Translations under genes and position numbers: made by a program
Shown here: in pieces, positions 18,551-58,016 of the stretch
How the letters are laid out: each line of letters opens with the position of its first letter
Position numbering within the stretch: position 1 is the stretch's first letter
Notes under the pieces: model-generated
What the model was told of the DNA's origin: nothing
Database searches by the model: none
The model's input: only the letters and a program-made list of their open reading frames with translations
Assembly (NCBI GenBank): GCA_963598245.1
Contig: CAVBSU010000001.1
Location: 6,854-70,853 of the forward strand
Length of the DNA stretch: 64,000 bases
Origin: Lachnospiraceae bacterium
GTDB taxonomy: Bacteria > Bacillota > Clostridia > Lachnospirales > Lachnospiraceae
Reading direction: 5' to 3'

Positions 18551-18618
18551 AAAACAATGCATCGGCTTTAAATACTAAAACTATGACGCAAAAAACAGAA
18601 ATACTCTCATATTTCCTT

Positions 18619-18724
18619 ATCTTCTTTCATCCGGACTATACCGTCGGCCGCGGAATTTCACCGCATCATGCAAAATGCTCGTGGGCTGTACCACCGGTGG
18701 GGAATTTCACCCCGCCCTGAAGAT
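18619..18724 (-). promoter_or_regulatory. FMN riboswitch (RFN element)
   Basis: The minus strand reads AUCUUCAGGGCGGGGUGAAAUUCCCCACCGGUGGUACAGCCCACGAGC...GCGGUGAAAUUCCGCGGCCGACGGUAUAGUCCGGAUGAAAGAAGAU. This matches conserved RFN blocks with P1 AUCUUC/GAAGAU, and it lies upstream of ribD. Confidence 0.9.
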
Positions 18725-18843
18725 CTCTGCCTAAGCTGTCTGTTTTATATAGACGCTTAAGCTATTCGATTGTAAATCCAATCCTTCCCGGAAAGGACTA
18801 TTTGATATTACTATGCATGCTTTAATATGTAAAGCTGTTTTTT

Positions 18844-20905: not shown

Positions 20906-20944
20906 GTTCTTTTACCTCCTGTAATATTTCCGCCCTAAAACTGC

Positions 20945-21075
20945 AGAAAAGAAAACTCCATGCCAAAAGACATGGAGGTAAAGTCATAGTACTTTTATTC
21001 CTCGGCAGGCGTCTTTCATCCTTACGCTCGCAGTGCAATGCACATAGAGCACCTGCTGTCTTCGGCAGTTAAAGC
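20945..21075 (-). promoter_or_regulatory. ribosomal protein L10 leader with attenuator hairpin
   Basis: Structured ~130-nt 5' UTR ending in CUCCAUG-N8-CAUGGAG plus UUUUCUUUU (20977-20945). The position and architecture fit the Firmicute L10 leader. Not verified by a covariance model. Confidence 0.55.
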
Positions 21076-21081
21076 TTAGCT

Positions 21082-21110
21082 ATATTAACACACAATTTCG
21101 GGTGTGTCAA
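21082..21110 (-). promoter_or_regulatory. rplJL promoter
   Basis: On the minus strand: TTGACA (21110-21105), 17-nt spacer, TAATAT (21087-21082). Confidence 0.6.
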
Positions 21111-28627: not shown

Positions 28628-28698
28628 AGCGGGTGATGGGAATCGAACCCACGTGTACAGCTTGGAAGGCTGTCATTCTACCATTGAACTACACCCGC
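28628..28698 (-). tRNA. tRNA-Gly (anticodon UCC)
   Basis: Cloverleaf checked by hand: GCGGGTG acceptor, anticodon stem-loop ACAGC-CTTCCAA-GCTGT, T-arm GTGGG-TTCGATT-CCCAT. No encoded CCA. Confidence 0.9.
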
Positions 28699-46378: not shown

Positions 46379-48340
46379 TCAGCTTTCTTCCTGTGATATG
46401 GTTTTCTCCATTTCAGCCGCCTTCGCCTGCTCCTCTATGACATTTTCCTTGGAATTAAGTATGCTCATGAATTCCTCACCCGTGATGGTTTCCTTTTCAT
46501 AGAGATACTTTACTATTTCGTGCAGCTTCATGATATTGTCTTCCAATATCTTGTAGGCTTTCTCATGCTGTCTTCTTACAAGGCCTATTACGGCGTCATC
46601 AATATTCTTCTGGGTTTCCTCAGAGCATGCTATGGACATGTCTCCGCCCAGATAAGCATTGTTCTTTGACTGAAGAGCTACCATATCGAAGCTTTCACTC
46701 ATGCCGTACTGCGTGTACATGGCTCTTGCAATCTTGGTGGCCTGTTCTATATCGTTAGAGGCCCCCGTAGTGATGCTTTTAAATATAAGCTCTTCCGCAG
46801 CGCGCCCTCCTGTAAGAGTAGCAATTTTATTTTCCAGCTCCTCCTTACTCATGAGATAATGATTTCCTTCTTCATCTACCTGCATGGTATATCCGAGTGC
46901 GCCTGAGGTGCGGGGGATAATCGTAATCTTATGTACCGGTGCTGAATTATTCTGCATCGCCGCAACCATTGCGTGTCCCACCTCGTGATAGGCTACAATA
47001 AGCTTTTCTTTATTGGTAAGCACCTTGTTTTTCTTTTTATAACCGGCCATTACGACCTCGATACTCTCTTCAAGATCCTGCTGATTTACTCTCTCTCGTC
47101 CCGCTTTTACAGCACGAAGCGCTGCCTCATTTATCATGTTTGCAAGCTCTGCTCCCGAGGCACCGGGGCAGGCCTTTGCTATACTGTCATAGTTGATATT
47201 GCCCGCCATTTTTACATTCTTCGCATGAACCTTGAGAATGTCTACTCTTCCCTGCATATCCGGAAGCTCTACCGGCACGCGTCTGTCGAAACGACCCGGC
47301 CTTAAAAGAGCCGGATCCAGAGCGTCAGGCTGGTTTGTAGCAGCAAGAATAATGATTCCCTTTGAACCGTCAAAGCCATCCATCTCCGTAAGAAGCTGAT
47401 TGAGAGTCTGCTCTCTTTCGTCATTTCCGCCTAAGCCGCTGCCGTTTCGCTTCTTTCCTATGGCATCTATCTCGTCTATGAAAATGATACATGGGGCTTT
47501 TTCCTGCGCCTGCTTAAAGAGGTCTCTTACCTTTGCGGCACCCATGCCCACATAAAGCTCTACAAATTCAGATCCCGAGATGCTGAAAAACGGTACGTCG
47601 GCCTCGCCTGCCACAGCCTTTGCCAAAAGAGTTTTTCCTGTTCCCGGAGGACCGACAAGCAACGCTCCCTTGGGTATTTTTGCACCGATGTCGCTGTATT
47701 TCTTCGGATTATGAAGAAAATCTACTATTTCTGCAAGCAGTTCCTTAGCTTCCTCTTCTCCGGCTACATCCTTAAACTTTACTCCGGTCTTTTCCTTATC
47801 ATATATCTTCGCATTCGATTTTCCGAAGCCTCCCATAAAACCGCCCATGCCGCCCATGGATGCCATCTTTTTGGAAAGCCTTGAACCGAACCAGATAAGG
47901 ATTATAAACGGAAGCAGGTTGTATAATATCAGCCAGACCGGGGATATCGTAGTCGGTATTTCCTGCGTAAATGTAGCTCCCGCCCTGTACATGCGGTCTA
48001 CTTCCCCAAAGTAGTTATTTATGCGTCCTGTTTTGTATATCTCACCCTCAGCTCCTGATTTTAATGTATAGGTTATCGAGTTATCGTCGAGCTGGACCTG
48101 ATCGACATTGGACTTATCCAGTTCTGTTAAAAATTCCGAGTAGGATGTTGTCTGTATGCTCTTCTCTCTCAGATAAGGCACAAGCATGGCATTTATAAGA
48201 AACAGCACTGCAAGGGCCACGATGTAGTAAACAAGCATGGGCTTATTTGGCTTCGGAAACATGTTATTTGATCCGCTGCCGTCATACTTGCTTTTATTTG
48301 GGTCATTCTGATAGTCAAAAATATTGCCTAGGTTTGCCAT
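46379..48340 (-). CDS. ftsH: ATP-dependent zinc metalloprotease FtsH
   Basis: 653 aa with Walker [12 protein letters not shown] and the zinc motif HEVGHA. Confidence 0.95.
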
Positions 48341-48579
48341 ATTTCTCCTGTTTTTATTTTTTCAATACTTTTTTATGTTTAGCAGTCTTCCTTTCGGACT
48401 GCTAATCGTAGTATAGATGTGTTCCTGGCTTTGTGCAAGCAATCGGGCATAACTTTCACACATTGTTTGCAAAGCCCGGGCGGAACTGTTTTTCATTATG
48501 CGCCATATACAAAATTTCTTTTGCAATCAAGCCCTGCATCGGTATTCGTGACCCTTTGATATCAGTATCATGCTATAAT

Positions 48580-49515
48580 ATGATACTGATGAATGATGAA
48601 TTTTTAAAAAATTTATACTCTGATTGTACTTTGTGTCCCAGACACTGTGGCGTAAACAGATACCGGGAAGTCGGATTCTGCAAAGCCGGTACACTTCCCC
48701 GTATAGCAAGGGCAGCACTCCATATGTGGGAAGAGCCGGTATTAAGCGGAAGCGGCGGTTCAGGGGCTGTATTCTTCTCAAACTGCACCTTAAGATGTGT
48801 TTTTTGTCAAAATCATGAAATAAGTGCGACCGGTTTTGGGCGTGATATCAGCATTGAAGCTTTGTCGGATATTTTTCTTAAGCTTCAGGAGAACGGAGCG
48901 CAAAATATAGACCTCATTACCGCCTCGCATTATCTTCCGTCAGTCACAGCCGCTCTGGAGCTTGTAAAACATAAGCTTAGCATTCCTGTAGTCTATAATT
49001 GCGGCGGATATGAAGATATTGAAAGCCTCCGGCTTCTTGAAGGATATATAGATATCTATCTTCCCGATATAAAATATTACTCCGACGCACTTGCAGTGCG
49101 ATATTCAGCCGCTCCGAATTATTTTAAAACAGCCATCTCCGCTGTAAATGAAATGATAAGACAGGTTGGCCGCCCGGTATATGAAACAGCTGCATCTTCG
49201 AAGCTCATCCGGGGCGTCATTATACGCCATATGGTACTTCCTTCCAATCGCAATGACTCTATTCAGCTTATGAATGTCATAGCAGAACATTTTGATGCCG
49301 GAGACTATCTGATAAGCATAATGAGCCAATACACCCCATTTTACAAAACATTGACCGACGAAAAATATAAGGAAATATCGAGAAGACTTACAAGCTTCGA
49401 ATACGACTCTGTAGTGCGTGAAGCACTAAAGCTTGGCATGAACGGCTTCATGCAGAAAAAAAGCTCGGCAAAAGAAGAATATACCCCCACCTTTAACCTT
49501 GAAGGAGTACCGTAA
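48580..49515 (+). CDS. radical SAM protein (PflX-like activase family)
   Basis: CTLCPRHCGVNR N-terminal Cys cluster and CxxxCxxC (CTLRCVFCQN). The start is uncertain (48580 or 48589), and the 49-codon upstream extension is rejected. Confidence 0.8.
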   Translation: MILMNDEFLKNLYSDCTLCPRHCGVNRYREVGFCKAGTLPRIARAALHMWEEPVLSGSGGSGAVFFSNCTLRCVFCQNHEISATGFGRDISIEALSDIFLKLQENGAQNIDLITASHYLPSVTAALELVKHKLSIPVVYNCGGYEDIESLRLLEGYIDIYLPDIKYYSDALAVRYSAAPNYFKTAISAVNEMIRQVGRPVYETAASSKLIRGVIIRHMVLPSNRNDSIQLMNVIAEHFDAGDYLISIMSQYTPFYKTLTDEKYKEISRRLTSFEYDSVVREALKLGMNGFMQKKSSAKEEYTPTFNLEGVP

Positions 49516-49646
49516 CCGTAATATTTACAAATCGAACATCTGCGCCATATGATAAAATACACTGATAAACAAGATGATTTTGTGATATCATACTCTAAAA
49601 GTGTTGACGAATGATTGTAAGCACCAAGTGCTTGCACTTGTGTGCA

Positions 49647-49904
49647 CAATCATTTGGCAACCTGCCGTGTATGAGTAAGTAGCGCGATAGCGCGGATTAC
49701 GAATACAGGGCAAGGATTGCGGGAGCACGCCAGTGCGTAGCAATCCGCACTTTTAGAAAGCCAAGCAATCATTTGGCAACCTGCCGTGTATGAGTAAGTA
49801 GCGCGATAGCGCGGATTACGAATACAGGGCAAGGATTGCGGGAGCACGCCAGTGCGTAGCAATCCGCACTTTTAGAAAGCCAAGCAATCATTTGGCAACC
49901 TGCC
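49647..49904 (+). repeat. 119-bp perfect tandem direct repeat, 2 full copies plus 20-nt third copy
   Basis: Copies at 49647-49765 and 49766-49884 are identical by eye. 49885-49904 repeats the first 20 nt, and similarity then decays. Confidence 0.95.
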
Positions 49905-49943
49905 ATGTATAATTGACTGTTTTTTTGTGAAGCCGGGTACATT

Positions 49944-50942
49944 ATGCCAAAACTTATAAGTCTGATAATTTCCGTTTATAACGAAGAAAACGGTCTTGAA
50001 TTCTTTTATGAAACAACTAAAGCAATTCTCGATAAATACATCGCCTCAAATCCGTCCTATGACTATGAGCTGTGCTTTGTAAATGACGGAAGTCTTGATG
50101 CAAGCGGTGCCGTTCTCAGTGAGTTGAAAAAAACAGATACAGCACATGTGTCTGTTATAAGCTTTTCCAGAAACTTCGGTCACGAGGCGGCCATGACTGC
50201 AGGCCTTGACTATGCAAAAGGCGATTATCTTATATTCATGGATGCCGATCTTCAGCATCCTCCCTCTTTGGTTTCCGAAATTATGGTCAAATTCGAGCAG
50301 GGCTTTGAAGTCATTAACATGGTTCGTACTAAAAATGAGGATGCAGGCGGCATTAAAAATCTCACCTCTGAGCTTTTTTACACATTGATAAATAAAATAT
50401 CCGAAACCCGACTTATACCGGGGGCTTCGGATTTCTTTGCCATAAACAGGCAGGCTGCCGAGGTTCTTAAGGCTAACTACCGCGAAAAGGTCAGATTTCT
50501 GAGAGGCTATGTTCAAAATATCGGCTTTAACAGGGCCACACTGGAATACGAGGCCGCCGCAAGATTTGCCGGACACAGCCACTACAGTCTGAAAAAGCTG
50601 TGGAAGTTTTCCATAGATACGATTATCTGTTTTTCAAATATCCCCCTCAAACTGGGAATTTATGCAGGCTTTGTTTCCGGAATGCTCGGGATTTTTCTCA
50701 TCATATACACTCTTATCACAAGAAACGGTGCGCCCGGCGGATATGCCACTATTGTTATTGTGCTGTGCTTCATGTTCGCCGTACTTTTTATGTTGCTCGG
50801 CATATTAGGAAGCTATATAGCGGTGCTTTTCAGGGAAATGCAGGACAGGCCCATATATATCATAAAAAACTATGCCGGGGTTGACTCCGGCGATCAAAAA
50901 AGCCTCATACACAACGCCTTACATAAAGGACCCGAAATATGA
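49944..50942 (+). CDS. family 2 glycosyltransferase (polyprenyl-phosphate sugar transferase, GtrB/ArnC-like)
   Basis: ISVYNEE, NDGSLD and MDADLQHPP motifs, plus two C-terminal TM helices. Confidence 0.85.
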   Translation: MPKLISLIISVYNEENGLEFFYETTKAILDKYIASNPSYDYELCFVNDGSLDASGAVLSELKKTDTAHVSVISFSRNFGHEAAMTAGLDYAKGDYLIFMDADLQHPPSLVSEIMVKFEQGFEVINMVRTKNEDAGGIKNLTSELFYTLINKISETRLIPGASDFFAINRQAAEVLKANYREKVRFLRGYVQNIGFNRATLEYEAAARFAGHSHYSLKKLWKFSIDTIICFSNIPLKLGIYAGFVSGMLGIFLIIYTLITRNGAPGGYATIVIVLCFMFAVLFMLLGILGSYIAVLFREMQDRPIYIIKNYAGVDSGDQKSLIHNALHKGPEI

Positions 50943-51616
50943 AAAGATGCGTGATAATAGGCGGCGCACCCATAGATAATTATGAGAGAGTGCGCGGATA
51001 TATAAAGGATGACGACTATGTGATTTACTGCGACTGCGGTCTTAAGCACAGACTTAAGCTTAATCGCAGAGCAGATCTTGTGGTTGGTGATTTCGACTCC
51101 TACGACAGAGAAAAAATCGGAAGCATAAGCATTGACATGGAAAACAGAAAACTTACGGATGAGAATTCCAGCGAGATCATTGAGCTTTGCCCCGTAAAGG
51201 ATGATACCGACACTTCCCATGCCGTGACTGTGGCTCTGGAGCGCGGCTTTGAGGATTTTCTGCTGCTTGGCATGACGGGCCGCCGCATGGATCATACTTT
51301 GGGCAATATCTATCTCCTCCATCGCCTCGATGAGCTTGAAAAGACCGCTATGATTGCAGATGACTACTCTGAAATAAGCATTATAAACCGCAAGCCTGCT
51401 TATATTGATGACAGTATGCCCTTTTTCTCACTTATAAATATCACGGGAAACGCAAGCGGCATAAGCATTGAAAATGCCAAATATCCGCTTGAAAATGCAG
51501 AGATCCTTCAGACGCAAAATGACCTTGGCATAAGCAATGAGGTGCTTCCCGGAAAAATCGCAAAAATCACAATAAGAAATGGAAAGCTTTTATTAGTAAG
51601 AGATGCCGTAGGCTGA
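50939..51616 (+). CDS. thiN: thiamine diphosphokinase
   Basis: 225 aa with VVGDFDS and KDDTDTSHA motifs. ATGA overlap with the GT2 gene. Confidence 0.85.
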   Translation: MKRCVIIGGAPIDNYERVRGYIKDDDYVIYCDCGLKHRLKLNRRADLVVGDFDSYDREKIGSISIDMENRKLTDENSSEIIELCPVKDDTDTSHAVTVALERGFEDFLLLGMTGRRMDHTLGNIYLLHRLDELEKTAMIADDYSEISIINRKPAYIDDSMPFFSLINITGNASGISIENAKYPLENAEILQTQNDLGISNEVLPGKIAKITIRNGKLLLVRDAVG

Positions 51617-57849: not shown

Positions 57850-57923
57850 GCCTCAATAGCTCAGTTGGTTAGAGCATCTGACTGTTAATCAGGGGGTCCC
57901 AGGTTCAAGTCCTGGTTGGGGCG
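57850..57923 (+). tRNA. tRNA-Asn (anticodon GUU)
   Basis: Hand-folded cloverleaf: acceptor GCCTCAA/TTGGGGC, D-arm GCTC-AGTTGGTT-AGAGC, anticodon loop CTGTTAA, T-arm CCAGG-TTCAAGT-CCTGG. Confidence 0.9.
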
Positions 57924-57944
57924 CTTTTTCATACTCAAAATACG

Positions 57945-58016
57945 GCGCCATGGTCAAGCGGTTAAGACACCACCCTTTCACGGTGGTAACACGAGTTCGA
58001 TTCTCGTTGGCGTCAT
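57945..58016 (+). tRNA. tRNA-Glu (anticodon UUC)
   Basis: Acceptor GGCGCCA/TGGCGTC, anticodon stem-loop CCACC-CTTTCAC-GGTGG, T-arm ACGAG-TTCGATT-CTCGT. Confidence 0.9.

Follow-up and report, generated by a model that had tools for sequence, protein, structure and literature searches.

A tandem array of the Clostridiales-1 RNA, a dispersed and probably mobile element, upstream of a glycosyltransferase gene in a Lachnospiraceae bacterium

A stretch of 64,000 nucleotides from a Lachnospiraceae bacterium (contig CAVBSU010000001.1, referred to below as the window) carries a 119-bp tandem repeat ahead of two genes, one for a GT2 glycosyltransferase and one for a thiamine diphosphokinase (TPK). An earlier note on this DNA had supposed a novel tandem riboswitch-like leader. 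The locus is a member of the Rfam family Clostridiales-1, catalogued in 2010, and for the window our result is mostly a correction in that sense. We consider it likely that the array is a dispersed, array-forming and probably mobile Clostridiales-1 element, here probably co-transcribed as the 5' untranslated region (5' UTR) of GT2 and TPK, and that it does not act as a ligand sensor. For the family, the survey presented below shows that this orphan RNA, abundant in the human gut microbiome, has near-identical arrays in dozens of species.

Identity of the repeat and reality of the duplication

When the whole window was scanned with the Rfam models (cmscan), the segment 49596-49755 of the + strand, hereafter unit 1, was matched as a full-length Clostridiales-1 RNA (RF01699, model positions 1-166, 112.7 bits for a gathering score of 48 bits, E = 7.8e-25); this is the single locus of the family within the 64 kb. 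A permissive scan gave Clostridiales-1 plus noise only. The c-di-GMP-I riboswitch (GEMM-I, RF01051), to which a loose resemblance had been noted earlier, gave no match even at E<=10 in 49450-50000 or 49756-49950. No riboswitch model matched there, and what the Rfam scan supplied was a family identity that the earlier note had not recognised. Clostridiales-1 was introduced by Weinberg et al. 2010 (PMC2864571) as a four-stem structured RNA motif, in a short paragraph that gives no function; its authors judged it 'not cis-regulatory, not a switch' and classed it as a small RNA (sRNA), which is also its label in Rfam. No later functional work on it was found in the searchable literature.

The minimum free energy fold of 49596-49755 gives the four stems of the family (-78.5 kcal/mol, z = -8.5): a closing helix P1 (49596-49604 paired with 49747-49755), a long hairpin H1 (49605-49659), a rod with two G.A-rich internal loops, H2 (49663-49712), and a third hairpin, H3 (49714-49746). 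Compared with shuffled controls, the fold z was -9.7 for 49583-49943 and -6.3 for the 119-nt unit. Most of the pairings proposed earlier from the sequence fall into this scheme: the rod hairpin with a GA/GA loop is H2, the second hairpin GGAUUGC...GCAAUCC is H3, the upstream pairing of AATGATTG with CAATCATT is H1, and the junction hairpin GCCAA/UUGGC is found at 49760-49777 and at 49879-49896. The terminator-like GUGCG-N8-CGCAC followed by UUUU has to be given up, since the UUUU is part of the 3' strand of P1 and a terminator scan of 49300-50100 found no canonical terminator. The window also has the loop nucleotides of the family, namely GCUUGC at the apex of H1, AUGAG.AAG.AG / CGGAUU.CGAAU in H2 and GGGAG / CG.AG in H3, all invariant or nearly so in 71 aligned members. 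Unit 1 thus shares with Clostridiales-1 the four stems, the loop nucleotides, the taxon and the habitat, as well as the lack of a consistent class of downstream genes. In the family alignment, G-U pairs outnumber A-C pairs, which favours the + strand. The structured + strand RNA of the earlier note is upheld.

The tandem repeat itself was found as described. Tandem Repeats Finder places a period of 119 bp at 49647-49910 (2.2 copies, 99% matches, score 521) and reports it as the one strong tandem repeat of the window; by direct string comparison, copy 1 (49647-49765, + strand) and copy 2 (49766-49884, + strand) are the same at 119/119 positions. A third copy, 49885-49910, goes on for 26 nt with a single mismatch (49905 G->A) and diverges thereafter, ahead of GT2. 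The 20-mer CAATCATTTGGCAACCTGCC, with which every unit starts, occurs three times in the window and in none of 100 shuffles. The arrangement typical of clustered regularly interspaced short palindromic repeats (CRISPR), i.e. direct repeats split by unique spacers of similar length, was not found, as the units abut; the repeat had rightly been held not to be CRISPR-like.

The 119-bp register splits hairpin 1 of the Clostridiales-1 RNA: copy 1 begins in the 3' arm of H1 and stops 10 nt past P1. In structural register, unit 2 runs from 49756 to 49874 (+ strand) and is composed of a linker, a mini hairpin 1 (49760-49777, an 18-nt stub of H1, GCCAAG/CAAUCA/UUUGGC), H2 (49782-49831), H3 (49833-49865) and the 3' strand of P1 (49866-49874), all on the + strand. 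It departs from Clostridiales-1 as published in that hairpin 1 is cut to a stub. Scanned alone, copy 2 was matched as a 5'-truncated RF01699 (69.8 bits, model positions 44-166), and the unconstrained fold of 49752-49876 is a four-stem mini-unit with a new 7-bp closing helix (-52.1 kcal/mol). The terminal fractional unit (49875-49910, 36 nt, + strand) includes repeat copy 3; after the linker come another mini hairpin 1, at 49879-49896, and the opening bases of the 5' strand of H2. A tail of 33 nt (49911-49943, + strand), with TTGACT at 49913-49918 and a run of seven T at 49920-49926, leads to the GT2 start.

The duplication is genuine and common to at least two strains. A second strain has an NCBI contig (GCA_963615365.1; L122) that codes for the same FtsH protein as the window and runs from unit 1 into unit 2, the copies differing at two positions of the H2 tetraloop. 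Moreover, one Logan k=31 contig from run SRR13434695 (L123) stops exactly 30 nt into the repeat and another (L121) picks up with the first 31-mer found only at the 3' edge of the array; because a k=31 graph would stay intact across a single 26-nt repeat, the sample holds the duplicated junction. Copy number at the strain level was examined in these three contigs. An exact search for the unit junction gave no match in genome_contigs and metagenome_contigs, two collections from which the species of the window is absent.

Could the tandem copy be a duplication of a single unit made by the assembler? The 119/119 identity of the copies is what such an artefact would give, and family repeats are a frequent cause of breaks and gaps in assemblies (seen as N runs in L028 and L061 and as contig ends). 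The idea is hardly credible here: the independent assembly of the other strain has both copies, told apart by two single-nucleotide differences, the branch points of the k=31 graph coincide exactly with the two edges of the repeat, and assemblers usually collapse tandem repeats rather than create them. Second-strain assembly and k=31 contig edges agree with two copies, and the recent tandem duplication or homogenisation earlier proposed to account for the 100% identity stands, with 119/119 identical positions and a second strain that reads through the junction. In that strain, the element occupies positions 1-270 of the contig, on the reverse strand, and the contig stops inside unit 2; the H2 tetraloop is GGCA in its unit 1 and GAUA in its unit 2, and GAUA in both units of the window strain. 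Either the two copies were homogenised in the window strain, or the other strain acquired a mutation later.

Arrays, structure and distribution of the family

At least 120 family loci were gathered by means of a pattern on the H2 loop consensus, and were examined with a profile hidden Markov model (HMM) built from them and with the Rfam model. The element, of roughly 160 nt, is dispersed between genes in Lachnospiraceae and related gut Clostridia. The hosts among the loci listed are nearly all Lachnospiraceae or Clostridia from gut and rumen samples, where the closest relatives of the window's flanking genes are also found. In an unbiased scan, about 20 of 119 loci, among the matches listed, had adjacent full or partial copies on the same strand; a second scan, for two H2 cores one unit apart, raised the total with arrays to at least 62 other species, counted with one genome per species. 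The arrays hold from 2 to at least 4 units, neighbouring units are mostly 95-100% identical, and abutting copies were confirmed by Rfam's own model. Direct inspection brought out a recurrent plan: one full unit, n truncated units without the 5' strand of P1 and part or all of the 5' arm of H1, and a fractional last unit. The window array follows this plan with a short period, 119 nt.

The array breakpoints vary between species, and copies truncated at the 5' end and at the 3' end are both seen, which argues for a mutational process rather than a designed module. Two candidate constants were tried and rejected. One was a terminal module of fixed extent, made of mini hairpin 1 and the start of H2 up to just before AUGAG; a terminal self-repeat is seen in 19 of 72 last units, but with scattered end points. 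The other, a conserved self-closing helix in the truncated units, was dropped, as H2 and H3 always fold and the closing helix is inconsistent. A partial downstream self-copy follows 19 of 72 last units, the short stub-hairpin class being left out. Such partial copies of the element would supply the short direct repeats between which unequal recombination or replication slippage may have made the array and may keep its copies identical. In the window, the repeats in question would be the 26-nt direct repeat that bounds the array (49647-49672 and 49885-49910, 3' arm of H1 plus start of H2); such events between repeats with a 119-nt spacing would yield precisely the structure seen.

Among the matches listed, the element lies within 200 nt of a true contig end in 28 of 119 loci (24%). 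N runs, which are scaffolding gaps or masked stretches, are seen inside the arrays of two contigs of metagenome-assembled genomes (MAGs), at 5532-5637 of L028 and 2097-2220 of L061, so that array copy numbers in public MAGs are unreliable. Since the element breaks short-read assemblies, its copy number is systematically under-reported in MAGs, and annotators should be aware that Clostridiales-1 may account for repeats met where contigs of Lachnospiraceae MAGs end. To our knowledge, the array architecture, the assembly breakage and the insertion-like termini discussed below are undescribed for this family. Arrays with truncated units, breakage and such termini are not described in the original publication (PMC2864571); a '-mergeTandem' display flag in the alignment file of the family is the sole hint of tandem copies.

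The structure is conserved across the family. Double compensatory changes were counted at 21 of 26 predicted pairs in 71 sequences (RNAalifold), and the internal loops of H2 and H3 are invariant across the same alignment; our best guess is that these loops form a protein-recognition module. Homology among copies covers about 210-230 nt and no more; its edges are sharp and the flanks unrelated, even at 96% identity. A conserved promoter was looked for and rejected, since in both subfamilies conservation stops about 9 nt upstream of P1. The copies with a co-oriented gene starting within 300 nt amount to 65%, the gene being often 10-60 nt away, and 29% face a convergent gene.

These observations bear on a first alternative, in which Clostridiales-1 would be an independent sRNA gene, acting in trans or sequestering a protein, the duplicated H2-H3 would multiply binding sites, and the adjacency to GT2 would be incidental. 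The invariant H2/H3 internal loops with their tandem G.A pairs and the covarying stems fit it well, as do the folding of H2 and H3 in every repeated unit of all arrays examined, the conservation of the element at an orthologous site followed by a canonical terminator in L052 and L084, and the sRNA class, as opposed to cis-regulator, given by Rfam and Weinberg et al. 2010. It fits less well with the lack of a conserved upstream promoter, even among 96%-identical copies, with the lack of a terminator between the window array and GT2, or with the 65% of copies that are closely followed by a co-oriented gene, and the arbitrary end registers of the arrays suit mutation better than design. All considered, we take an sRNA gene of this kind to be a serious but rather unlikely explanation.

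Several genomes hold the element on three to four different contigs. No match was found in the plasmid collection, the phage collection gave one unverified scaffold, and IMG/VR gave only 16 true matches; the element is not primarily plasmid- or phage-borne. The phage scaffold (L204, MT837528.1, an unverified 'Bacteriophage sp.') has a full copy at 717-876 and is syntenic with L068, and one variant (HMM score 70.7, model positions 17-155) recurs in seven IMG/VR contigs (L399, L405, L412, L414, L415, L421 and L422). The copies on viral contigs could be prophage-borne or could be host DNA in viral bins. Element-bearing contigs were also met in MAGs labelled Prevotella, Bacteroidales, Bacteroidaceae, Treponemataceae or Fusobacterium (L040, L066, L068, L076, L083, L110, L113, L212, L227, L268 and L269); such non-Clostridia labels probably reflect binning contamination and not true hosts. 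Degenerate relics are also worth recording: a copy from which hairpin 2 is precisely deleted (L078 3350-3453, - strand), and isolated fragments of the 5' or 3' end that lie 1-4 kb away from a full copy (L102 4938-4979, L115 6742-6789, L041 5825-5884).

Mobility

Judging from its termini and flanks, at least one large subfamily, called GATACC, looks like a miniature inverted-repeat transposable element (MITE) or another insertion element. Its 5' end is GATACCAGGGTCAAAAGG and its termini match GAT(ACCA)GGGTCAAAAGG; a 3' stub hairpin, not always present, gives rise to a terminal inverted repeat of 18-20 nt, and the flanks are locus-specific, AT-rich direct repeats of 7-9 nt. Flanking direct repeats of at least 7 nt were found at 37% of the loci versus 13% of permuted pairs. 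That the flanking 7-mers merely extend the RNA helix was considered and rejected, as the non-palindromic cases stay direct and not inverted. A preference for insertion just after host terminators was also dropped (8 of 129 elements versus 2.4% at control positions).

A filled site and its empty counterparts were found between tig and clpP. The two genes are syntenic in 78 of 80 species; the element is present in one of the 78 (UMGS96) and the other 77 sites are empty. The UMGS96 element (3787-4000 of L319, which is the same as L115) is located between the stop codon of the trigger factor gene and the ribosome-binding site (RBS) of clpP, and is flanked on both sides by ATAAAAT, of which the upstream copy overlaps the tig stop codon. 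When the element and one ATAAAAT are deleted, the spacer is 23 nt long and retains its RBS, the spacers of the relatives being 21-24 nt long. Presence/absence polymorphism at orthologous sites is thus observed at the family level, at tig-clpP and not at the window's own locus. The possibility, raised earlier, of a MITE scattered with target-site duplications is borne out in part, again at the family level, the view of the window genome being limited to 64 kb.

In the window, an 8-nt direct repeat, TTTTGTGA, brackets the whole array (49578-49585 and 49923-49930). It is the longest common substring of the flanks, and was matched by 152 of 5000 shuffles (p ~0.03); the pair is a possible target-site duplication, only marginally unusual, and we do not claim it as one. 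No clear terminal inverted repeat comparable to that of the GATACC subfamily is present at the window array. Locating the right edge of the insertion by comparison with relatives was given up, since the TTGACT box is the sole shared sequence.

Several points weigh against a mobile element co-transcribed with GT2. Some copies are kept at orthologous sites in species whose flanks are about 70-90% identical (L052/L084, L004/L022), and some are followed by a canonical terminator, so that they resemble stable sRNA genes and not mobile DNA. Internal loops that are near-invariant across genera would not be expected of a purely selfish repeat. The window genome shows one locus, with an 8-mer at p ~0.03 and no GATACC-like terminal inverted repeat. 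The collected loci include no sequence-identical empty site, and the one predicted at tig-clpP is absent from metagenome_contigs; neither result is informative. Run SRR13434695 may be the source of one of the assemblies, and thus maybe not fully independent. Lastly, the strand, the RNA ends and the co-transcription with GT2 are all inferred.

If mobility is taken to its end, Clostridiales-1 would be a purely selfish repeat (MITE or minisatellite), with a structure due to the inverted repeats of transposition and to recent common ancestry. The terminal inverted repeats of the subfamily, the 7-bp target duplication, the filled and empty tig-clpP sites, the multiple copies that break assemblies and the arbitrary phases of the arrays are all in its favour. 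Nevertheless, conservation peaks in the H2/H3 internal loops and not at the termini, which differ between subfamilies; compensatory changes in internal helices are seen across genera; the element is kept at orthologous sites across divergent species; and a partner transposase was not identified. A purely selfish origin of the structure appears improbable to us on these grounds.

A broader proposal can be made, tentatively and with less than even confidence: the family as a whole might be, instead of an ordinary sRNA gene, a mobile array-forming element, which inserts at AT-rich intergenic sites with a 7-bp duplication, expands by unequal recombination between its own partial downstream copies and has an H2/H3 form recognised by a protein. 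If so, array copy number should vary between strains, and H2/H3 would be kept as RNA or single-stranded DNA recognised by a protein, either for the spread of the element or for a benefit to the host, such as tuning of the stability or translation of downstream mRNAs. Clostridiales-1 would then represent a new class of functional MITE-like RNA modules in gut Firmicutes. The leads that follow for this family are variation in copy number, a transposase or a binding protein that partners the element, and possible effects on the mRNAs downstream.

The glycosyltransferase junction and comparison with known systems

The array is preceded by a radical-SAM gene (48580-49515, + strand; PF04055, 311 aa as in the gene calls of L122 and L123). 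A 360-aa form starting at GTG 48433, the longest open reading frame, was set aside, as its product is not on record and other assemblies start at ATG 48580. Downstream of the array, the GT2 gene (49944-50942, + strand; PF00535, E = 2.4e-29) encodes a glycosyltransferase of the PgfS/ArnC type, polyprenyl-phosphate glycosyltransferase-like; the NCBIfam alignments are full-length, with 225 bits for PgfS and 130 bits for ArnC-like, both below the curated cut-offs. The start of the TPK gene (50939-51616, + strand) overlaps the GT2 stop, and its product matches TIGR01378 (124.5 bits, cut-off 76.4) and the Pfam TPK domains. Both annotations of the earlier note are confirmed by these matches.

Promoter-like sites on the + strand were seen only upstream of the array, and none between the array and the GT2 ATG. 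A consensus scan gave TTTACA-18-TATGAT (10/12) at 49524-49553 and CTGATA-18-TATCAT with a TG extension at 49562-49591, both on the + strand. The first, although not conserved in family members, is a candidate start for the element-carrying transcript. The second contains the extended -10 pointed out earlier, which is thus present as a promoter-like site; it would be the less likely start, because a transcript that begins about 7 nt further on would lack the first bases of P1. With promoter-like sites only upstream and no terminator before the ATG, transcription through the array into GT2 is the simplest reading, and the array is probably, from the position of these signals, in the leader position ahead of GT2-TPK that had been assigned to it. 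Transcription may start at an upstream promoter-like site, or may be supplied by read-through from the radical-SAM gene. The array would then form a 5' UTR of about 350 nt, structured and very stable, and any effect on GT2 (mRNA stability, translation or spacing) would be incidental and would vary with copy number.

The GT2 start has no clear Shine-Dalgarno sequence, with only GGG at -9 to -7 (49911-49946). Two relatives (L124, L125) have, upstream of GT2, a canonical TTGACT-N18-TATAAT promoter and a GGAG RBS, both absent from the window; TTGACT is the only upstream motif in common. Without a canonical promoter or RBS of its own, GT2 may depend for its expression on transcription through the array.

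The gene order also differs between the window and its relatives. It is FtsH(-) radical-SAM(+) / element / GT2(+) TPK(+) BCCT(-) in the window (48340-49944 region), BCCT-GT2-TPK-radical-SAM-FtsH on one strand in L126, and GT2-TPK-radical-SAM(-) in L124 and L125. Relative to these three contigs, the element is placed at a synteny breakpoint. Likewise, L064 and L106 have a block in common that is bordered by the element, in opposite orientation. Clostridiales-1 repeats may mark or mediate rearrangements, and the element probably reached the radical-SAM/GT2 junction by insertion or by rearrangement.

Comparison leaves very little room for a dedicated cis-regulatory leader of GT2-TPK, i.e. a tandem riboswitch or a protein-binding attenuator, as the earlier note would have it. 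Position is what recommends such a leader: the element is directly upstream of GT2 on the same strand, no promoter-like site intervenes, and its structure is dense and conserved. Tandem aptamers are, besides, known for other riboswitch classes. Yet none of 80 loci with a GT2 orthologue, from Lachnospiraceae, Oribacterium and others and with up to 79% identity, has the element, the gene order differs, and the genes downstream of 68 family members spread over about 100 Pfam families, each matched at most four times; to this must be added the 29% of copies that face a convergent gene. No riboswitch model was matched, and the second 'aptamer' lacks most of hairpin 1. As for an expression platform, none was found, with no terminator in 49300-50100 and no significant structure over the RBS or ATG (fold z = +0.67 for 49866-49943). 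From these comparisons, the element is not a conserved GT2 leader, nor would it be an ancestral GT2 regulator; a dedicated leader is largely refuted and is, in our view, very improbable.

Other RNAs were detected in the window: a full-length flavin mononucleotide (FMN) riboswitch (RF00050, 112.1 bits, 18615-18728, - strand), a ribosomal protein L10 leader (RF00557, 65.7 bits, 20940-21083, - strand) and, by Rfam, three transfer RNA genes at 28628-28698 (- strand), 57850-57923 (+ strand) and 57944-58015 (+ strand).

Tandem riboswitch aptamers (e.g. glycine) and c-di-GMP-I/GEMM-I are, like the array studied here, repeated structured modules in a 5' leader. The likeness ends there: the array has no match to their covariance models, no conserved gene association and no expression platform, and tandem aptamers are diverged, cooperating copies whereas the window copies are identical recent duplicates. 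Sponge sRNAs of the CsrB/RsmZ type offer another parallel, in that one transcript could show repeated stem-loop modules. Their modules are short GGA hairpins, whereas Clostridiales-1 units are complex, over 100 nt long, and vary in number through recent duplication; we know of no binding protein for Clostridiales-1.

The GATACC subfamily resembles MITEs in its terminal inverted repeats and target duplication. The family differs from them by its conservation across many genera, its invariant loops and covarying stems, and by the stability of some copies at orthologous sites with a terminator of their own; no transposase partner is known to us. In behaviour, the closest analogues are the short, noncoding, highly structured MITE-like repeats dispersed in intergenic regions and often co-transcribed with their neighbours, such as the pneumococcal BOX, Correia/CREE, RUP, ERIC and REP/BIME elements. 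BOX elements are modular, A-(B)n-C, with a variable number of tandem internal modules. As far as architecture goes, a like variability was found in Clostridiales-1, with arrays of 2 to at least 4 units that have a distinct first unit and a fractional last one in at least 62 species. To conclude, the full unit followed by n truncated units and a stub resembles the A-(B)n-C plan of BOX, as an architectural analogy and not as homology.

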